Positions 1-9,281 of a stretch of DNA of 64,000 nt are shown here, in pieces. The DNA is taken from assembly GCA_963674595.2 (NCBI GenBank), contig CAXXFV010000023.1, forward strand, positions 1-64,000, read 5' to 3'. The stretch comes from a bacterium (GTDB taxonomy: Bacteria; Zhuqueibacterota; Zhuqueibacteria; Residuimicrobiales; Krinioviventaceae). Position 1 is the first letter of the stretch. Each line of letters begins with the position of its first letter. Below the pieces are notes generated by a model. That model did no database searches, was not told where the DNA came from, and saw nothing but the letters and a program-made list of their open reading frames with translations. The position numbers were made by a program, and so were the translations under genes.

Positions 1-1233
1 GATAATCAGTCCAAAAACCACAACCAGCAGCGATGCCCAATGTGAAATTTTTACAGTTTCCTTGTCTGTTGCCGTGGATTTAAAATAGGGCTGCCAAATA
101 TCCCTGACTATAAATGACGCCCCGCTGTTGACAATGGAACTGAATGTGGACATGAAGGCGGCCAAAAGTCCCGCAATAACCAGTCCGCGTATACCGTTTG
201 GCAAATATGTTAACAGAACAATCGGCATCACTTTTTCCGAGTCGGTAACTCCGGTAATGCCGGTTAAAGCAAGCAGGGCAATACCCATGGTCATGGCCCA
301 GCGAACGATCAGGAAAAAGCTCCAGGCTGCGCCAACTTTGGATGCGTCTCTGGCATCTCTTGTGGCCAGGAACCTTTGGAAATCATACATTTGTGCAGGT
401 CCGCCCGCGTTTAACAACAGACCTTTGAATACCCATACCATGACCAAGGCTCCGAAAAATTCAAATTCAGCGTGTGCCGTATTTGAAAATTCATGAATAT
501 GCCACGGCACCTTTAAGGAGGTCCAGTTTTGCGGCAGGGAAGATAACAGCTCCGGCGAGAGTTCTGACCAGGCGATATAGGCAATAAAAATGCTTCCCAA
601 TGTGAGGATCAGTGTTTGAATGACGTCGGTAAATACCACACTATAAAGTCCGCCGACAACAACATATAATGTTGTGATACTTATGATGAGAATAGCCAGA
701 ATATCCGGCTGATGGTTTTGAATAAAATTTGATAAAATTGAAAGGGGAATTATTTTTACCAGGGGATCAAGAGAGATATATACCGACGCGAATTTACCGA
801 TACCCTGATAAGCATAACCGATAAAACTGGCCAGGGTGAGGACCGCCATAATGGCATAAGCTGTACGTGCCAGTCGGCCTCCGGTATCGTCTCCAAAACG
901 TGTTTTCATCCATTCTGCCGCCGTCATCACATTGGAACGGCGCACCCATTTCCCCATATAGGCCATAAAAAAGGCAGCCATATAAACACCCCACATCCAG
1001 TGGTGCCACATGGATTTCATACCCAGAACAAAAAGAATGGAAACAATCCACATGGTACCGGTAATGTCAAATGTGGAAACCGAACCGGACATGGCCAACG
1101 GCAGCCAATGCAGGTTTTTTCCGCCCAGAAAATAGTTGTTGAGACTTATTGATGCACGTTTTTGGAACCAAAAACCGAGGCCGATAACCAGAATAAAATA
1201 GACGAAAATAATCGAATAATCAACAGGGACCAT
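1..1233 (-). CDS. Sodium:solute symporter (SSS) family protein, truncated by the window edge
   Basis: Not in the ORF track because it runs off the edge. Read manually from ATG at 1233: MVPVDYSIIFVYFILVIGLGFWFQKRASISLNNYFLGGKNLHWLPLAMSGSVSTFDITGTMW, a typical SSS N-terminus (YFLGG..L.W), followed by hydrophobic segments. Confidence 0.88.
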   Translation of the reverse strand, partial: MVPVDYSIIFVYFILVIGLGFWFQKRASISLNNYFLGGKNLHWLPLAMSGSVSTFDITGTMWIVSILFVLGMKSMWHHWMWGVYMAAFFMAYMGKWVRRSNVMTAAEWMKTRFGDDTGGRLARTAYAIMAVLTLASFIGYAYQGIGKFASVYISLDPLVKIIPLSILSNFIQNHQPDILAILIISITTLYVVVGGLYSVVFTDVIQTLILTLGSIFIAYIAWSELSPELLSSLPQNWTSLKVPWHIHEFSNTAHAEFEFFGALVMVWVFKGLLLNAGGPAQMYDFQRFLATRDARDASKVGAAWSFFLIVRWAMTMGIALLALTGITGVTDSEKVMPIVLLTYLPNGIRGLVIAGLLAAFMSTFSSIVNSGASFIVRDIWQPYFKSTATDKETVKISHWASLLVVVFGLII

Positions 1234-1549: not shown

Positions 1550-2971
1550 ATGTCCATACGAAAAATTTTGCCATTATTGTTATCGATAATTGTTCTGACC
1601 ATATCGGTTTTGTTTGTTTTCCTTTGGCCTGAAAAAAAGATCGATGATCCCTGGGCAAAAGTCGCAAAAAAAACAGAACATACAAATCATTCTGAATTGT
1701 TAAAGGGCCCATTTAAAGACGGACCTTCCGTGACCAAGGCTTGTTTACAATGTCATGAGGAATCCGCTCATCAGGTCATGAAAACAGTGCACTGGACATG
1801 GGAGGGAGAGCCGGTAACCTTGCCAAATCGTCAAAATCCGGTACGCCTGGGAAAGAAAAATGCTATTAATAATTTTTGTATCGGCATTCGCTCCAATTGG
1901 CCGCCGTGCACAGCCTGTCATGCCGGTTACGGTTGGGAAGATGAAAAGTTTGATTTTACTCAAGAATATAATGTTGATTGTCTGGTTTGCCATGAGCACT
2001 CCGGGACTTATGTAAAGTCCCTGGGCGGTCTGCCGGCAAAAGATGTCGATTTGGAAAAGGTTGCCCAAAGCGTTGGTCTGCCGACACGGGAAAATTGCGG
2101 CAGTTGCCATTTCAGGGGCGGCGGCGGAAATGCCGTTAAACACGGCGATTTGGACGGCAGTTTATATCACCCAACGGACCGTATTGATGTTCATATGGGA
2201 AAACATGGATTTGTTTGCACCGATTGCCATACGACTATCGACCATCAGATTAAGGGGCGGGCTATTTCCGTTAGTTATGAGGACAAAAACCAGGTTTATT
2301 GCACCAATTGTCATGATGGTCAGCTTCACAAAGACCAGCGTATCAATGCGCATGTCGCTACTGTTGCCTGTCAAACATGTCACATCCCGGAAGGTGCTGT
2401 TAAAGAAGCTACAAAAATGCATTGGGATTGGTCTACGGCCGGTCAGGACTTGCCGCAGGACCCGCACAAATATCTAAAAATTAAGGGCAGTTTCGTATAT
2501 GAAAGCAATTTCCAACCCAGCTATTTTTGGTATGATGGAAAAGCAGACCATTATTTGTTTGGCGACAAGATGGACCCAAAAGAAACGACATTGTTAAATG
2601 ATCCTCAAGGTGATATTCGTGACCCAAAAGCCAAAATATGGCCTTTTAAAGTTCACACCGGTAAGCAAATTTACGATAAAAAATATGAATATTTTTTACA
2701 GCCCAAGACATTTGGGAAGGACGGTTTTTGGACGGAATTTGATTGGGACAAAGCAGCGAAATTAGGCAGCGAAACAACCGGTCAAAAATACAGTGGTGAA
2801 TTCGGTTTTGCTCCCACGGTTATGTTCTGGCCGCTGACTCATATGGTTGCGCCAAAAGAAAAAGCCCTGCAATGTGTTGACTGTCACGGTGATTCAAAAG
2901 CAACACGCATGGATTGGAAGGCATTAGGATACGATGGTGACCCAATGTATACAGGTGGACGAAAATTATGA
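1550..2971 (+). CDS. otr: Octaheme c-type cytochrome, tetrathionate reductase (Otr) family
   Basis: Eight CxxCH motifs (CLQCH, CTACH, CLVCH, CGSCH, CTDCH, CTNCH, CQTCH, CVDCH). Also HWTW, GKKNAINNFC, CHAGYGW, KHGD and the C-terminal DWKALGYxGDP typical of Otr. N-terminal membrane anchor. Confidence 0.9.
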   Translation: MSIRKILPLLLSIIVLTISVLFVFLWPEKKIDDPWAKVAKKTEHTNHSELLKGPFKDGPSVTKACLQCHEESAHQVMKTVHWTWEGEPVTLPNRQNPVRLGKKNAINNFCIGIRSNWPPCTACHAGYGWEDEKFDFTQEYNVDCLVCHEHSGTYVKSLGGLPAKDVDLEKVAQSVGLPTRENCGSCHFRGGGGNAVKHGDLDGSLYHPTDRIDVHMGKHGFVCTDCHTTIDHQIKGRAISVSYEDKNQVYCTNCHDGQLHKDQRINAHVATVACQTCHIPEGAVKEATKMHWDWSTAGQDLPQDPHKYLKIKGSFVYESNFQPSYFWYDGKADHYLFGDKMDPKETTLLNDPQGDIRDPKAKIWPFKVHTGKQIYDKKYEYFLQPKTFGKDGFWTEFDWDKAAKLGSETTGQKYSGEFGFAPTVMFWPLTHMVAPKEKALQCVDCHGDSKATRMDWKALGYDGDPMYTGGRKL

Positions 2972-5631
2972 TTTGGAAAAGAATTTTATATACGAACATA
3001 TTAATTTTATTAATATCGACAATTTTGACGGCCCAGTCCTCAATGCACCCTGTTTTTCCGCTTAAGGACAAAAATAATATAAATGTCTTAAAATCCGGCG
3101 GACCGGTATCAACCTATAAAACCTGTGGCCAATGTCATGATTCACAGTTTATTGCCACCCACAGTTTTCATAGTCAGGCCGGGTTGGAGGATATTACAAA
3201 AACAGATTCCGGGAAATATGACCGGTCCTGGGATTATGGTTCAGGTCCATTCGGGCAATGGAACCCGTTTTATTACCGTTATTTAACATTAGACGATAAA
3301 ACAGCACCAGACATGGGTGTACCGGATTGGGTACAGGTTTACGGCGTCCGTCATGCCGGTGGCGGACCGGCAGAGTTTGAACAGCTTTTATCTATCGAAC
3401 CTGCGGCAAAAACCCTTGACCCGAATACCGGGGCCTGGAAAGAATGGGACTGGAAAAAATCCGGTAATGAGGAAATGAACTGTTTTTTGTGTCACACAGG
3501 CAATCCCAATAATACGGATCGGATCCACGAAATTCAGCAGGGGAATTTTCAATGGGCGGCAACAGCGACACTTTCCAACACCGGTGTTGTTGAAAAGACC
3601 AAAGGAGAATGGCGTTATCAGAAAAATGCTTTTGATGCGTACGGTAATGTTAAAAAGGAATTGTTACCCATTAAAGATCCGAGTAACGAAAACTGCGGGC
3701 AGTGTCATGGCCTTGTACATTCTGATAACAAGCAGCCCCTGGTTTTTGATGATTTTTCCTTTTCGTCCTGGAGTACTTTGACGACAGGACAAGTTTTTTC
3801 CGCTCAAAGAATTTCCGATTCAGGACTGAATCTGCATAATAAAAAATCACTGGATCGATCATGGGACGTTCATACTGAACGGCTGCTGGATTGTGTCGAT
3901 TGCCACTATTCAGTAAACAATCCGATTTATTATCAGGAAGCGGCAGATACCAGACCGGACCATTTGCAGTTTGATGCCCGTCGTCAGGATTTTTCCGACT
4001 ATGTATATCGTCCCAGCCATCAATTTGCATCCGGACGATTTGATCATAACGAAAATTATGGCATGGATGTGTCCTCAATGCGCAGTTGTGAATCCTGTCA
4101 TGATATGTTGTCTACTCATAATTGGCTTCCATACAAGGAAAAGCATGTCCAAAGTATGACCTGTGAGGCCTGCCATGTTCCTCAGGTAAATGCGCCTTCG
4201 CAAAAGGTTTTGGATTGGACATTGATTTCACCCAATAGCGAACCTCGTGTTGAGTTTCGCGGTATTGATGAACCGGTTGTGAAAAGTAACACCTTTATTA
4301 AAGGTTATGAACCGGTCCTATTGCCGAGAAAAGAAAGCGACGGACGTTTCAAGCTTGCACCTTATAATCTTGTAACAACCTGGTACTGGACAACCGGAGA
4401 CCCGGAACGACCTGTACGCTTCTTTGATTTGAAAAAAGCCTTTTTAGAAAATAATAGTTATCATACAGATATTGTGAAAGCCTTTGATGCTGATCATGAC
4501 GGCAATCTGTCCGAAACAGAAAAAAGACTGGACACTCCATTAAAAGTCAAGACAGCGATACAAAGGCTGCAAGCTGTAGGTGTTGAAAATCCGGTCATAC
4601 GTGGCGACGTCCAGCCCTATGCCATTCATCATAATGTCGCTGAAGGTGAATTTGCCACACGTGACTGTGAAACCTGTCATAGTCAGACTTCGAGAATATC
4701 CCAGTCTTATGAACTGGCCGGATTTGTTCCCCTGACGGGAGAAAAATCAAATTTTATTTCCAGCTTACCGGTCAAATTCTCGGGTAAAATTAAAATAGAT
4801 GATTCACGGAAAATGATTTACAAACCTGTCGTCCGTTCAGACGGATTTTATGTACTCGGGCATGATAAAGTAATTGCTGTACAATGGATCGGTGCGTTGA
4901 CGGTCATTTTTGTTTTAATCGGTATTTTGATTCATGGTGGTTTGCGAATAAAATATACCCGAAGATTGAAACAGAAAAACTTTTATTATAAAAATATTTA
5001 TTTATATCCTATTTATGAGAGATTTTGGCACTGGCTGCAGGCCTTTACCATTATTGGTTTAATTTTTACGGGTCTGGTTATTCATGCTCCCGATGTTTTC
5101 AGCTTTTTGAATTTTGCTCCGGCGGTTATTATACACAATATGCTGGGTTTTATTTTGTTGATTAATGCGTTTTTTGCTGTTTTTTATTATGTCACCAACG
5201 GAAAGATATTCGGCTTTCTACCGGAACCGCAGGGATTTTTTAATCAGGCAATTCAGCAGGCAGAGTATTATTTACGAGGAATTTTTAAAGGAAAACATCA
5301 CCCCTTTGAAAAAAATATAAACAGGCGCCTGAATCCATTACAAAAAATCACCTATTTACTTATTTTGAACGTTTTACTGCCTTTGCAGATCATTTCAGGC
5401 ATTTTAATTTGGGGAGCACAACGATGGCCCCATGTTGCTGAAAATTTAGGCGGTCTGGGACTGCTGGTGCCGTTTCATTCTTTAATTGCCTGGTTTTTTG
5501 CAGCATTTTTGATTATGCATATTTACCTGGCTACAACCGGACATAAACCATTGACCCATATCCAGGCAATGGTAACCGGTTGGGAAGAGGTCGTTGTGAA
5601 AAATGGAAAGGAAACCAAAGATGAAAAGTAA
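2968..5631 (+). CDS. Heptaheme Otr-paralog cytochrome c fused to C-terminal di-heme cytochrome b (PhsC/FdnI/HyaC-like)
   Basis: Signal peptide and seven CxxCH motifs. C-terminal membrane domain has ERFWHW, IHNMLG, NPLQK and FHS...MHIY (four b-heme His). ATGA overlap with the otr stop codon. Confidence 0.87.
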   Translation: MIWKRILYTNILILLISTILTAQSSMHPVFPLKDKNNINVLKSGGPVSTYKTCGQCHDSQFIATHSFHSQAGLEDITKTDSGKYDRSWDYGSGPFGQWNPFYYRYLTLDDKTAPDMGVPDWVQVYGVRHAGGGPAEFEQLLSIEPAAKTLDPNTGAWKEWDWKKSGNEEMNCFLCHTGNPNNTDRIHEIQQGNFQWAATATLSNTGVVEKTKGEWRYQKNAFDAYGNVKKELLPIKDPSNENCGQCHGLVHSDNKQPLVFDDFSFSSWSTLTTGQVFSAQRISDSGLNLHNKKSLDRSWDVHTERLLDCVDCHYSVNNPIYYQEAADTRPDHLQFDARRQDFSDYVYRPSHQFASGRFDHNENYGMDVSSMRSCESCHDMLSTHNWLPYKEKHVQSMTCEACHVPQVNAPSQKVLDWTLISPNSEPRVEFRGIDEPVVKSNTFIKGYEPVLLPRKESDGRFKLAPYNLVTTWYWTTGDPERPVRFFDLKKAFLENNSYHTDIVKAFDADHDGNLSETEKRLDTPLKVKTAIQRLQAVGVENPVIRGDVQPYAIHHNVAEGEFATRDCETCHSQTSRISQSYELAGFVPLTGEKSNFISSLPVKFSGKIKIDDSRKMIYKPVVRSDGFYVLGHDKVIAVQWIGALTVIFVLIGILIHGGLRIKYTRRLKQKNFYYKNIYLYPIYERFWHWLQAFTIIGLIFTGLVIHAPDVFSFLNFAPAVIIHNMLGFILLINAFFAVFYYVTNGKIFGFLPEPQGFFNQAIQQAEYYLRGIFKGKHHPFEKNINRRLNPLQKITYLLILNVLLPLQIISGILIWGAQRWPHVAENLGGLGLLVPFHSLIAWFFAAFLIMHIYLATTGHKPLTHIQAMVTGWEEVVVKNGKETKDEK

Positions 5632-6133
5632 ACCCTATTTAAATCCATACGTGGCCGGCGTTTTATTGGGGATTGTGCTTTTTCTGGCTTTTTTTATAAC
5701 CGGTAACGGATTGGGCGCTTCAGGTGGCTTGAACCGTATCATTGTGGCCGTTGAAGATTTTTTCGTCCCCAAACATGTTGACCAGACACCCTATCTTTTA
5801 AAAATGGCCGGTGGCGATAAAAATCCATTGGACCATTGGATTGTTTTTTTAACAATCGGCACCGTTATAGGCGGATTTTTTTCCGGTTTGGTTCATAAAA
5901 GAGTTCGATTTGAAACCGGTAAAGGACCGAATATATCAGTTAAAACACGCTGGCTTTTGGCATTTATCGGCGGCACTTTGATGGGATATGGCGCCCGGTT
6001 TGCCCGGGGCTGTACTTCCGGTCAGGCGCTGTCCGGCGGCGCTGTGCTGTCAGTCGGAAGCTGGGCGTTTATGTTTGCGGTTTTTGCCGGTGGTTATGCT
6101 CTGGCCTATTTTTTTAGAAAAGCATGGAATTAA
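5621..6133 (+). CDS. YeeE/YedE (sulfur transporter) family half-protein
   Basis: PYLNPYxAG, GLGASG and GARFARGCTSG motifs; hydrophobic. The ATG at 5621 follows AAGGA and overlaps the upstream gene end. Confidence 0.88.
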   Translation: MKSKPYLNPYVAGVLLGIVLFLAFFITGNGLGASGGLNRIIVAVEDFFVPKHVDQTPYLLKMAGGDKNPLDHWIVFLTIGTVIGGFFSGLVHKRVRFETGKGPNISVKTRWLLAFIGGTLMGYGARFARGCTSGQALSGGAVLSVGSWAFMFAVFAGGYALAYFFRKAWN

Positions 6134-6148
6134 CATAAAGGATAGACA

Positions 6149-7372
6149 ATGAATTTTTTTCCAATAATTGATCAGTTTGGACATTTGGCAAGTTATATAA
6201 TTTATTTGTTTATCGGGATCGGATTTGGTGCTGCGCTTGAAATGGCAGGATTTGCCAATTCTCCCAAACTGGCTGCACAATTTTATCTGAAAGATATGAC
6301 AGTCCTGAAAGTCATGTTTACGGCCATAATAACCGCAATGGTTTTGGTATATCTGGCAACTAGTTTTCTTGTTTTGGATATCGACCAGGTCTGGATTAAT
6401 CCAACCTATTTGTGGCCGGGGATTGTCGGCGGCCTGATAATGGGTTTTGGTTTTATTATCGGAGGCTTTTGTCCGGGTACATCACTGGTTGCCTTGGCGA
6501 CACTAAAGCTGGACGGCATTTTCTTTGCCTTGGGTGCATTTTTTGGTATTTTTCTGTTCGGTGAAACAGTCGGCTTTTTTGAGGGATTTTGGAATTCCAG
6601 TTTTATGGGGCGTTTTACCTTGTATGAATGGTTTGGTGTTGATGCCGGTGTTGTTGTTTTTGCCGTCAGTATTATGGCATTGTTCATGTTCTGGGGTGGT
6701 GAAAAACTGGAACATATTTTTGGAGATATAAAAAAATCCGGTAAAAAATTTAACTATTTGGGTGCAATTACGCTTTTGGTTTTGGCCGGTTTGGTTATGG
6801 TTGTCGGCCAGCCTTCGTTACAGCAAAAATGGAGCAAAATTGCTATTCAAAAGCAAAATTTGCTGATAAACAGGGATGTCTATATACATCCGGGTGAATT
6901 GTTGACGTTGATGAATAATGATGATATAAATTTAATCATGTATGATGTGCGTCCGGAAAAAGACTATAATATGTTCCATCTTTTGGATGCTAAAATGATT
7001 CCGGACTTGACAACTCCAGGGCTTTCCCGGCAATTAAAAAATTTGCCGGTAAACAGCCTCATCGTTGTTATGGGAAATGACGAACAAACTGCCACGGAGG
7101 TTTGGAAACGAATGGCGGCCATGCGCGTTCCCAATACTTATATTTTGGATGGCGGTATTAACAATTGGCTCAATATTTTCGGACATGAAGGACATGAAGA
7201 TTGTCCTGCTACTGAAAGCGGCAACAATGAAAACTTTGTTCACGTTTTTCCTTCCGCACTTGGTGACCGGAATAAATCTTCTGCCCCGATGCTTGAACAT
7301 TTTAAAGAGATTCATTTTCAACCAAAAGTAAAAATTCAAAAACAATCCAAAAAGCAGGGAGGGTGCAGTTAA
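6149..7372 (+). CDS. YeeE/YedE half-transporter fused to rhodanese-like domain with C-terminal GGCS
   Basis: N-terminal GFG..LE.AGF and GGFCPGT motifs. Rhodanese hallmarks DVRPEKDYNMFHL and YILDGGINNW. Protein ends KVKIQKQSKKQGGCS*. Confidence 0.85.
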   Translation: MNFFPIIDQFGHLASYIIYLFIGIGFGAALEMAGFANSPKLAAQFYLKDMTVLKVMFTAIITAMVLVYLATSFLVLDIDQVWINPTYLWPGIVGGLIMGFGFIIGGFCPGTSLVALATLKLDGIFFALGAFFGIFLFGETVGFFEGFWNSSFMGRFTLYEWFGVDAGVVVFAVSIMALFMFWGGEKLEHIFGDIKKSGKKFNYLGAITLLVLAGLVMVVGQPSLQQKWSKIAIQKQNLLINRDVYIHPGELLTLMNNDDINLIMYDVRPEKDYNMFHLLDAKMIPDLTTPGLSRQLKNLPVNSLIVVMGNDEQTATEVWKRMAAMRVPNTYILDGGINNWLNIFGHEGHEDCPATESGNNENFVHVFPSALGDRNKSSAPMLEHFKEIHFQPKVKIQKQSKKQGGCS

Positions 7373-7493: not shown

Positions 7494-9281
7494 ATGACAA
7501 AAAGTTTTACATTTATATTTAAATTGATGGTACTTTTTTTTATATGTCCCTCTTTATTACATTCATCAGAACAATCCGATAGTTCTGCCAAGTCTTCAAT
7601 AAGTATAAAACTCGTTAAAGATAATTTTATTACAATTTCCAACAAGGAACACAAAAACAACAGGATCGGTTACCGGTTTTTTGAACATGAACCTGTTGTT
7701 TTTGGCAATGTTCCACTTTCTGCTTCCGAAGCAAATATTGATCTTGATTATATCCGGAATGTAGAAAATAGTTTTAAAAATCGCACCGATGTTTTTGTTT
7801 ATAAACACCAAATTGACAAAGATGAACATTGGGTGGAACAAACCTGGACTTATTATATGGTGCCGGTTTCGGATGGTATTGAAATTTATCTTGTCGTAGA
7901 AACCGGTAAGGAAGGACTTGCCGAATACTATGGTATTCAGCAATGTTTTCGTTTAAGCGGAAAAACAAATGAACAATGGCGTCGGGAAATAGCGGAAACA
8001 CCGGCGTTTAGTGAATATGATTTATGGAAAAAATCGCAAAAAAGTTTAACATGGGTCCTTCGTAATAATGAATGGCAGTCCCTGCCGGCTGGAAAAGATG
8101 CTGTCGGTGCGCGAACACCCCTGGGTTTGGCAATCGATGATTTGACTTATAATGTGGAAATGCCAAAAAATATTGGACCTTATGATGCGCTGATGCTGGC
8201 CCCGGTTGATAACGGTTTGATTGTTCGTACGGATATTGATGAGAATTATGTGTGTGGTATTTACTGGAACAGTACGTCGCATGTTACAAATCATCATCCT
8301 GCTGATTGTTTACACAGTGTTGTAAATATCGGAAACGTACCGCCCTTTTCAAAACGAATGGTTCAGGGGAAGATTTATTGGCTAAAGGGGAATAAACAGG
8401 ATCTGTTGACCCGCTATCAAAAGGATTTTCAAGATTCCAAAAAAGGTACGTTGCGTGTTGCCGCCTGCCAGTTTTCTGTTGCCGCCGGTATTACGGATAA
8501 CGCTGAATGGATAAAAAAGCAAATGAAACATGCACGATTACAAAATGTGCAGTTAATCCAGTTTCCGGAAGGGGCCCTGTCAGGATATGCCGGTTCTGAT
8601 CTGTCTACGTTTGAAGGTTATGACTGGTCTTTGTTAAAAGAAAAATCCCGGGAAATAGCCGCGTTGGCTAAAGATTTAAAAATGTGGGTTTTACTTGGCA
8701 GTACCCACCACTTGTCAGATGGAAACAAACCTCACAATTCTCTTTATGTTATTACACCCGAAGGCAAAGTCCTTGACCGGTATGACAAAAGATTTTGTAC
8801 GGAAAGTGATTTAAAATATTATTCACCCGGAGATCATTTTGTTGTGTTTGATGTAAATGGTGTAAAATGCGGACTGTTGATATGTTATGATATCCGTTTC
8901 CCGGAACTATATCGTCAGTACAGTGTTTTAGGCGTTAATGCAATTTTTCATTCATTTTATAATGCCCGGCACAAAGAAGATTGTATTCATCCGAAAATTA
9001 TGCCCATCACAGGTCAGGCCCGTGCCGCAGAAAATGGTGTTTATGTGTCTTTTACAAACTCCAGCGCCCCATATAGCTGGCCGTGTCATTTTATTACACC
9101 GGACGGTATGATCCAGAAAAAGCTGATAAGAAATATACCGGGTATATTAATTTTTGATATTGATTTGTCAAAAAAATATTATGACATCAGCGCTCCGTTT
9201 CGGCTGGATGCCATTAAAGGCAAGTTAAACAGCGGCGATACAGTGCAGGATCCCCGGTCAGACAAGCGAAACGAATTTTAA
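7494..9281 (+). CDS. Carbon-nitrogen hydrolase (nitrilase superfamily) with an uncharacterised ~310 aa N-terminal domain
   Basis: C-terminal half has VAACQ, FPEG, YDK and ICYDIRFPE (Glu-Lys-Cys triad). N-terminus looks like a signal peptide. Confidence 0.82.
   Translation: MTKSFTFIFKLMVLFFICPSLLHSSEQSDSSAKSSISIKLVKDNFITISNKEHKNNRIGYRFFEHEPVVFGNVPLSASEANIDLDYIRNVENSFKNRTDVFVYKHQIDKDEHWVEQTWTYYMVPVSDGIEIYLVVETGKEGLAEYYGIQQCFRLSGKTNEQWRREIAETPAFSEYDLWKKSQKSLTWVLRNNEWQSLPAGKDAVGARTPLGLAIDDLTYNVEMPKNIGPYDALMLAPVDNGLIVRTDIDENYVCGIYWNSTSHVTNHHPADCLHSVVNIGNVPPFSKRMVQGKIYWLKGNKQDLLTRYQKDFQDSKKGTLRVAACQFSVAAGITDNAEWIKKQMKHARLQNVQLIQFPEGALSGYAGSDLSTFEGYDWSLLKEKSREIAALAKDLKMWVLLGSTHHLSDGNKPHNSLYVITPEGKVLDRYDKRFCTESDLKYYSPGDHFVVFDVNGVKCGLLICYDIRFPELYRQYSVLGVNAIFHSFYNARHKEDCIHPKIMPITGQARAAENGVYVSFTNSSAPYSWPCHFITPDGMIQKKLIRNIPGILIFDIDLSKKYYDISAPFRLDAIKGKLNSGDTVQDPRSDKRNEF

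Follow-up and report, generated by a model that had tools for sequence, protein, structure and literature searches.

A conserved cysteine-tipped tail on a half-channel-rhodanese fusion encoded with an Otr-family octahaem cytochrome: a candidate tethered sulfur carrier

SoxY possesses a C-terminal GGCGG carrier motif, and Sud is a periplasmic rhodanese-fold protein that carries polysulfide sulfur to a respiratory reductase. The octahaem cytochrome Otr has reportedly been known since 2004 to reduce tetrathionate, nitrite and hydroxylamine in vitro; its cellular role is unsettled. For YeeE-type channels, a heterodimeric form, PmpAB, has been proposed, in which the single Cys of PmpB is equated with Cys91 of S. 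thermophila YeeE (PMC11582611). In the YeeE crystal, Cys293 is situated at the periplasmic thiosulfate site (PMC7449682). The window considered here is the whole stretch of DNA analysed, namely positions 1 to 64,000 (64,000 nucleotides) of contig CAXXFV010000023.1 of assembly GCA_963674595.2, from a bacterium of the phylum Zhuqueibacterota. It harbours a four-gene operon that starts with otr and ends with an open reading frame (ORF; 6149..7372, plus strand) encoding half of a YeeE-type channel fused to a rhodanese-like domain and a tail ending in GGCS. It is moderately probable that the Cys of this ending (Cys406) is a tethered sulfur-carrier (or redox) Cys that serves both Otr and the channel, on the periplasmic side of a YeeE-type channel that is split in two. 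Neither the terminal Cys of the fusion nor an otr-pmpAB-rhodanese operon was found to be described in the literature searched, supplementary gene tables being outside the reach of that search.

In the 407-amino-acid product of this ORF, a PmpB-like half channel is followed by two extra membrane helices, a rhodanese-like domain devoid of the catalytic Cys and a Cys-tipped tail. Pfam assigned residues 43-218 to Sulf_transp (PF04143; E 2.9e-10; profile positions 12-195) and residues 248-341 to Rhodanese (PF00581; E 5.1e-10; 6890..7171, plus strand), the modelled rhodanese fold extending to approximately residue 380; no other Pfam family matched at E ≤0.01. The membrane domain (residues 1-222; 6149..6814, plus strand) contains six hydrophobic segments, as judged from hydropathy, loop charges and the helices of an AlphaFold2 model, and carries Cys108 in the motif GGFCPGTS (codon 6470..6472, plus strand). 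At the position of the rhodanese active-site loop, the sequence reads IVVMGNDE (residues 305-312; 7061..7084, plus strand; family consensus SNDE), with Gly309 in the column of the catalytic Cys. The tail beyond the rhodanese fold (residues 381-407 and stop codon; 7289..7372, plus strand) comprises a [KR][VI]x[LIMV] strand, a linker of basic or small residues, and GGCS. Its last part (7325..7372, plus strand), with the codons AAA GTA AAA ATT CAA AAA CAA TCC AAA AAG CAG GGA GGG TGC AGT TAA, is translated as KVKIQKQSKKQGGCS*, so that the GGC-tipped tail proposed in an earlier, sequence-only reading of this region was read correctly. Codon TGC at 7364..7366 (plus strand) specifies the putative carrier Cys406, which is singled out by its conservation in homologues. 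For the 407-residue protein, no NCBIfam model came near its cut-off (the TsuA models gave 41 bits versus 400 and 22.6 versus 645), and a full-length YeeE/TsuA protein was not recovered, as this ORF and the one preceding it each match only half of the Sulf_transp profile. The source genome contains a single copy of the fusion and a single otr.

Conservation of the terminal Cys was assessed in several sets of homologues. Of 8000 candidates scored in a word-index search with the 407-residue query, 5108 proteins matched at E ≤1e-5; the best 120 are 51-60% identical to the query over 96-100% of its length. All of these 120 end in GGC followed by one or two residues (GGCG in 115, GGCS in three, GGCSS in one and GGCGG in one), and the [KR][VI]x[LIMV] motif starts 13 or 14 residues ahead of the Cys in 116 of them. 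An exhaustive search of 50%-identity representatives yielded 1535 matches at E ≤0.001 (252 at E ≤1e-30), and 149 representatives were newly listed, 97 of them being 370-460 amino acids long. Among these 97 listed full-length representatives, 75 end in GGC plus zero to two residues and 15 others have a Cys within the last three residues, mostly as REGC or RRGC; hence, 90 of the 97 possess a Cys within the last three residues. Finally, an alignment of 113 sequences was composed of the query, all representatives of 370-460 amino acids and every eighth close homologue, the tail not being a selection criterion. In this alignment, Cys occupies the terminal column in 106 of 113 sequences and the Cys108 column in 111, and besides these two no column contains at least 20% Cys. 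An additional alignment (A1) was chosen for the terminal Cys, and the invariance of Cys406 therein carries no evidential weight; Cys108 is invariant in A1 and in a further alignment (A3). On this comparative evidence, the terminal Cys is near-invariant down to approximately 30% identity. Within the source genome, this ORF alone among 6917 ORFs of at least 90 amino acids ends in GGC followed by zero to two residues out of G, S and A, with about one such ending expected by chance; by itself, one GGC ending is thus within chance, but its conservation, as judged from the homologues, is far beyond it.

The same pattern was found in 43 related loci from species-representative genomes, since GGCG ends the fusion protein in all 38 loci with a complete 3' end, the other five being truncated by contig ends (four) or split (one). 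In the locus from a gammaproteobacterial metagenome-assembled genome (MAG; L041:8007-8486), the fusion gene is broken after approximately residue 164, with a TGA end, and similarity resumes beyond, owing to a frameshift or an assembly error. The alignment of homologues suggested in the sequence-only reading, with loss of the terminal Cys as the outcome that would count against it, thus turned out in its favour (120/120 closest homologues and 38/38 complete loci). Likewise, the absence of a Cys from the rhodanese loop is a property of the whole family (Cys in 0/113; column 309 has S in 59, G in 18, A in 13 and D in 11), which is compatible with the scaffold role that had been put forward for this domain. 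Two subsidiary suggestions were not upheld. Firstly, Cys352 of GHEGHEDC (residues 345-352; codon 7202..7204, plus strand), a second Cys thought to take part, is Cys in just 2/113 sequences, in a column consisting mostly of gaps, and falls outside any conserved mechanism. Secondly, a selenocysteine form of the terminal Cys (GGU) was not encountered, as no TGA occurred at this codon in the 43 loci examined, all 39 GGCG ends being encoded with TGC or TGT. Outside the haem motifs, the four operon proteins together hold five Cys residues, namely Cys110 of Otr, Cys137 of the PmpA-like protein, and Cys108, Cys352 and Cys406 of the fusion, all of which are conserved except Cys352.

Upstream of the fusion gene, the operon encodes Otr (1550..2971, plus strand), a 473-residue octahaem cytochrome c of the tetrathionate reductase family with an N-terminal membrane anchor, eight CxxCH motifs and an extra Cys; a protein in which a heptahaem cytochrome c domain, with a signal peptide and seven CxxCH motifs, is joined to a PhsC-like membrane cytochrome b (2968..5631, plus strand; 887 amino acids); and a PmpA-like half channel (5603..6133, plus strand). 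The genes are tightly packed, with a 4-nucleotide overlap between otr and the haem fusion gene, a 29-nucleotide overlap and a 15-nucleotide gap. The identity of Otr is clear (TIGR04315, 579.7 bits versus a cut-off of 375; 1SP3_A, E 5.3e-163). Its residues Lys102 (codon 1853-1855, plus strand) and Cys110 (codon 1877-1879, plus strand) are invariant in 26/26 sequences and correspond, in the alignment with 1SP3, to chain positions 56 and 64, Lys56 of 1SP3 being the unusual haem ligand. Contig C3 of another genome (G004, the genome of L003) contains, at approximately 6 kb from the otr of the operon, a second gene of the Otr family (639.5 bits). The 887-residue protein matches Ni_hydr_CYTB with residues 680-871 (E 5.3e-25) and the thiosulfate reductase cytochrome b subunit model NF011582 at E 1e-36, under its cut-off, and is presumed to represent the quinol-side electron input.

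The gene order otr, heptahaem-cytochrome b fusion, PmpA-like gene and PmpB-rhodanese gene, on one strand, was retrieved in every locus with enough upstream sequence (32/32); in the remaining 11 of the 43, contig ends intervene before the full operon. The heptahaem-cytochrome b gene alone is found upstream in 38 of the 43 loci, the remaining five being interrupted by contig ends. According to their record titles, these loci derive from Calditrichia, Anaerolineae, Ardenticatenaceae, Promineifilaceae, Chloroflexia, Eisenbacteria and one gammaproteobacterial MAG. In the phylum of the window, 58 of 167 genomes match the fusion at E ≤1e-20, with the full-length fusion in approximately 23; most other matches span the PmpB-like half alone (query residues approximately 10-195), without rhodanese or tail. 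None of SoxZ, SoxXA and SoxB is encoded in the operon. The link of the tail protein to Otr and a YeeE-type channel, as drawn in the sequence-only reading, is supported by the constant gene order in the 32 informative loci.

The side of the membrane on which the tail resides was addressed by structure prediction and loop charges. The AlphaFold2 model, built on A1 (the first row of which, P0001, differs from the window protein by A29T), has a mean predicted local distance difference test value (pLDDT) of 91.5 and a predicted template modelling score of 0.87, and shows, besides six long membrane helices and the rhodanese fold, a tail that is for the most part not helical. VIA-align placed model residues 15-202 on YeeE residues 1-193, comprising helices H1-H7 (8j4c_B, Z 9.0, root-mean-square deviation 3.4, 173 aligned residues; 6lep_A, Z 8.8 over the same model residues). 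This YeeE match comes from VIA-align alone, as YeeE was not retrieved by a PDB profile search with A1 or by Foldseek (rhodaneses only). With Foldseek and VIA-align, the rhodanese part matches many rhodaneses (Z up to 10.8, for GlpE, over model residues 244-379), and these alignments extend to approximately residue 380. Averaged over A1, the numbers of Lys plus Arg are low on one side of the membrane (N-terminus, 0.3; loop 75-88, 0.3; loop 142-166, 1.3) and higher on the other (loop 36-52, 2.3; loop 108-121, 1.0; loop 186-203, 5.0). In YeeE, the N-terminus is outside and the C-terminus inside, H7 reversing the topology between H1-H6 and H8-H13 (PMC7449682). In the model, helix 166-192 is the predicted counterpart of H7, ending inside, and helix 199-219 is predicted to lead out again. 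Since the loop charges (positive-inside rule) and the superposition on YeeE agree, the rhodanese-like domain and the tail are most likely periplasmic, which puts the tail, according to this prediction, on Otr's side of the membrane; the sequence-only reading had named no side.

The alternative topology has a precedent in YeeD, a single-Cys partner that is essential for YeeE-mediated uptake and acts on the cytoplasmic side (PMC13047784, PMC11582611), the structure of a YeeE-YeeD complex being available (8j4c). By analogy with YeeD/TsuB, the rhodanese-like domain and tail could be cytoplasmic and accept, at the channel's inner face, thiosulfate or sulfane sulfur. This is very improbable, however, as there are six hydrophobic segments rather than five, with the most basic loop (mean of 5.0 Lys plus Arg) between segments 5 and 6; the fit to YeeE H1-H7, with the N-terminus outside, orients the sixth helix from inside to outside; and both Otr and the haem domain are exported, given their anchor and signal sequences.

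The complementary half of the channel is encoded by the PmpA-like ORF (5603..6133, plus strand; 176 amino acids), which matches positions 176-309, the C-terminal half, of the Sulf_transp profile (E 7.7e-24) and has a Lys/Arg-rich N-terminus that is predicted to be inside. Its sole Cys, Cys137 (codon 6011-6013, plus strand), lies within RGCTSGQALSGG and is invariant in 26/26 sequences; its codon is TGC or TGT in 41/41 cases, TGA never being seen. Through the published PmpB mapping (PMC11582611), Cys108 of the fusion (Cys in 111/113) is taken as the Cys91 equivalent, and pore Cys residues are conserved at the positions equated with YeeE Cys91 and Cys293. A short tethered arm with one Cys, located near a pore with an invariant outer Cys, could also act as a redox gate or sensor, in which case Cys406 would form a reversible disulfide or trisulfide with Cys137 and plug or open the pore depending on the periplasmic redox or sulfane-sulfur state. 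Indeed, native YeeE crystals contained a disulfide between two channel Cys (PMC7449682). Such gating is nevertheless clearly unlikely, because it leaves unexplained both the strict linkage to otr and the fact that unrelated proteins without a channel, encoded beside otr, also bear Cys-tipped tails (described below), and because the constant arm length and the GG ahead of the Cys suit a substrate arm at least equally well.

Support for covalent sulfur chemistry in the channel may come from Cys108, the codon of which is replaced by TGA, within GG[FY]*PGTS and with the frame otherwise open, in four genomes. Among 42 loci of the collection, codon 108 is TGA in two (L018:8292-8294, GGF*PGTS; L029:5184-5186, GGY*PGTS) and TGC or TGT in 40. 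The other two genomes have it, within GGY*PGTS in both, at 3278-3280, minus strand, of L077 (G424:C42) and at 3040-3042, minus strand, of L078 (G423:C129), and both TGA matches of the search of the phylum retain a tail ending in GGCG or GGCS. The machinery for selenocysteine (Sec) incorporation was retrieved to various extents: tRNA-Sec scored 67 bits in G424 (gathering score 47), accompanied by SelB above the cut-off (331 bits); 68.4 bits in G472, likewise with SelB above the cut-off (297 bits); 73.4 bits in G471, with only a 147-bit piece of SelB; and 49 bits in G423, which is 73% complete, without SelB above the cut-off. The TGA at codon 108 thus probably denotes a PmpB-like half with Sec in place of Cys108. 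In three of the four genomes, a 6-bp hairpin with loop AGUU follows the TGA at a distance of 14 nucleotides, stem changes keeping the pairing, but its folding energies are no better than those in the Cys versions (mean -18.6, standard deviation 5.4, n = 40), and no Rfam match to a selenocysteine insertion sequence was found behind the TGA in the four genomes. A review of 2026 mentions a YeeE/YedE selenoprotein with the motif GUxSG (PMC13188914). This motif is similar to the GCTSG site of the other channel half, and codon 108 appears to be a distinct position. The exchange of Cys108 for TGA in genomes with tRNA-Sec marks this channel Cys, as far as can be read from the codon, as chemically active.

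Concerning contact with Otr, complex prediction of Otr residues 35-473 and residues 223-407 of the fusion, based on locus-paired alignments, was graded as weak support, with a score of 0.48 (runs of 0.60, 0.48 and 0.46); the best of three controls scored 0.00, the runs agreed in at least 77% of the contacts and the partner pLDDT was at least 79. In the benchmark of this score, 58 of 80 solved complexes and 2 of 110 mismatched pairs came up to the mark, and those that did so with a score of at most 0.60 comprised only 7 of the 80 solved complexes and both passing mismatches; these counts are approximate here, since the analysis used its own alignments.

Further information came from otr loci of another origin, namely the class to which the gammaproteobacterial MAG belongs. 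Out of a sample of 301 genomes of this class, 21 contained Otr above the cut-off, giving 20 loci with up to 8 kb on each side, all of which have a stand-alone cytochrome b directly downstream of otr. Five of them (L048:808-1350, L049:738-1286, L053:759-1304, L055:758-1303 and, on the minus strand, L057:3174-3719) encode, directly upstream and on the same strand, a DUF302 protein of approximately 180 amino acids, which starts with a membrane helix and finishes with a Gly-rich tail whose last residues are GGC or SGC. In two more (L084:10212-10610 and L097:1687-2055), a small protein with a signal-like N-terminus ends in SPAGCS or PATCK; the gene that follows the former (L084:10660-11907) encodes a YeeE-like protein of 415 amino acids. 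In the other 13 loci, a crude motif search within up to 8 kb or to the contig end revealed no Cys-tailed neighbour, and a Cys-tailed carrier beside every otr was therefore rejected as a general rule (five DUF302 and two small secreted proteins in 20 loci). In lucinid symbionts, a divergent soxY/soxZ pair adjoins otr (PMC11237559). Because of the DUF302-GGC neighbours and the lucinid soxY/soxZ beside otr, the theme of Otr with a terminal-Cys protein is one that recurs on unrelated scaffolds.

These data also bear on the question whether the arm needs Otr at all. Cys406 could capture and release sulfur at the outer mouth of the channel only, passing it to Cys137 and then to Cys108, with Otr handling soluble thiosulfate or tetrathionate nearby and never touching the arm. 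The arm is indeed fused to a channel half and not to Otr, carrier-bound sulfane sulfur has been proposed to pass to the YeeE-like SoxT transporters (PMC11582611), and both the weak complex prediction and the 13 loci devoid of a Cys-tailed neighbour fit such a division of labour. Yet, an arm that serves the channel only is rather unlikely, as the fusion adjoins otr in all 32 informative loci, many genomes of the phylum match the PmpB-like half alone, so that rhodanese and tail are not required by the channel as such, and non-homologous Cys-tailed proteins stand beside otr elsewhere. Alternatively, the terminal Cys might, instead of carrying sulfur, ligate a haem iron or a metal or join the protein to a partner by a permanent covalent link. 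Cys-ligated haems are known in thiosulfate-handling cytochromes, and the active site of Otr has a conserved Cys beside an unusual haem; but every haem site in Otr and in the heptahaem fusion protein has its own CxxCH, Shewanella Otr (1SP3) was solved without such a partner, and the pLDDT of the tail falls from 92 (residues 391-400) to 63 (residues 401-407), which suggests, on the model, mobility of the last seven residues rather than a fixed ligand. A ligand or linkage role is hence extremely improbable.

The favoured reading, a sulfur-carrier (or redox) Cys shared by Otr and the channel, would operate as follows. The channel would be a heterodimer of the PmpA-like protein, contributing Cys137 at the outer side, and the first 190 or so residues of the fusion, contributing Cys108 at a deeper position of the pore. 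The chain of the fusion would return to the outside through two additional helices, where the Cys-less rhodanese-like domain may serve as a docking scaffold and the last ten or so residues as a short flexible arm tipped by GGC. Otr would draw electrons from the quinol pool via the heptahaem-cytochrome b fusion and act on sulfur bound to the arm, as a thiosulfonate or persulfide derived from tetrathionate, thiosulfate or polysulfide. A reductive action of Otr is envisaged because the PhsC-type cytochrome b domain suggests electron entry from quinol; it might consist of the cleavage of a tetrathionate-derived thiosulfonate on the arm or of the shortening of an arm polysulfide. Most economically, the relay would run from Cys110 of Otr, at the active-site haem, to Cys406 of the arm, from there to Cys137 at the outer mouth, and further to Cys108, or Sec, deeper in the channel. 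In this way, the arm may hand sulfane sulfur or thiosulfate to the channel for import, although the reverse direction would be possible too.

Several observations weigh against this reading. The adduct on Cys406 is proposed from sequence, and the chemistry might be reductive or oxidative; the membrane side of the tail is a prediction; and nothing in the acidic SNDE loop points to the rhodanese domain as a sulfur binder in its own right. A terminal Cys is lacking in 7 of the 97 full-length representatives, several of which match the query in their N-terminal part only and may be mis-assembled. The complex prediction adds a small increment and gives no interface, and the 13 otr loci of the other class without a Cys-tailed neighbour count here as well. 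Taken as a whole, the sequence-only interpretation stands in part: it is supported as regards conservation, the Cys-less rhodanese, the operon and, on prediction, the topology, and it loses the second Cys and the GGU variant.

As a tentative extension, with somewhat less in its favour than would be needed to prefer it, the natural substrate of Otr-type octahaem cytochromes in general may be sulfur held on the terminal-Cys arm of a partner protein. In the present operon, that arm would have been built onto a split YeeE channel, coupling quinol-driven periplasmic sulfur chemistry directly to import along a covalent Cys (or Sec) relay. If so, the operon would represent a respiratory and sulfur-uptake module of Calditrichia, Chloroflexota, Eisenbacteria and a gammaproteobacterial MAG. 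The strictly linked arm and sulfur channel point to protein-held sulfur as the substrate of Otr. For YeeE-type channels, a hydrogen-bond relay and a covalent hand-over between Cys residues are both possible, and a tethered carrier Cys at the mouth, together with the TGA (probably Sec) that four genomes have for the inner pore Cys, would favour covalent chemistry. Calditrichia, Anaerolineae and other lineages that are abundant in sediment and groundwater possess the operon, which may therefore matter for the annotation of sulfur cycling.

The surroundings of the operon are variable. In 25 loci, mostly of Chloroflexota, the gene that immediately precedes otr, on the same strand, encodes a regulator of the ArsR family (e.g., L018:3030-3380). 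Persulfide sensors display a two-Cys pattern; the regulator has one conserved Cys (23/25) without this pattern, and its consideration as a persulfide sensor added little. The window does not contain an ArsR gene, otr being preceded by a divergent transporter gene (1..1233, minus strand). Downstream of the operon, the gene at 7494..9281 (plus strand) encodes a protein of 595 amino acids with a signal-like start and an N-terminal part of approximately 300 residues, the CN-hydrolase domain being restricted to residues 321-559; this gene is not conserved in the 43 related loci.

Among comparable systems, the DUF302-GGC proteins beside otr are likewise membrane-anchored (approximately 180 amino acids), have their genes immediately ahead of otr and cytochrome b, and end in GGC or SGC; they differ in their unrelated domain (PF03625), lack a channel and were present in only 5 of 20 sampled otr loci. 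As to Otr itself, the protein of the window is a clear family member: it has all eight haem motifs, and it keeps the Lys and Cys that Shewanella oneidensis Otr (1SP3; TIGR04315) has at chain positions 56 and 64. The Shewanella enzyme was reportedly characterised with free tetrathionate, nitrite and hydroxylamine, a protein-bound substrate not being found in the literature searched. Sud of Wolinella (1QXN) shares the rhodanese fold (1qxn_A matches the family profile at E 1.7e-06), but uses the canonical loop Cys, which is absent here, the sole candidate being C-terminal. The YeeE/TsuA channel with its partner YeeD/TsuB (6LEO, 8J4C) resembles the present system in the YeeE fold of residues 15-202 (Z 9.0), in the conserved pore Cys and in its reliance on a partner with one essential Cys. 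In contrast, the channel of the window is split over two genes, as in PmpAB, and its Cys-bearing partner is fused to one half, has another fold and is predicted to be outside. Finally, SoxY was not among the Pfam and NCBIfam matches of the fusion at E ≤0.01, and its scaffold is a different one, as the arm is tethered here to a membrane channel by way of a rhodanese fold, with a linker of eight or nine residues between strand and GGC and with the ending GGCS (GGCG in 115/120 relatives and GGCGG in just 1/120). It has in common with the fusion a single GGC carrier Cys (putative in the fusion) at the C-terminus, on a short mobile arm that follows a V/K-rich strand, as well as a periplasmic location and service by a c-type cytochrome, predicted and proposed, respectively, for the fusion (the SoxY properties in part after PMC11582611, otherwise general knowledge). 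The tail of the fusion may thus work like the arm of SoxY, as its analogue and not as a SoxY homologue.

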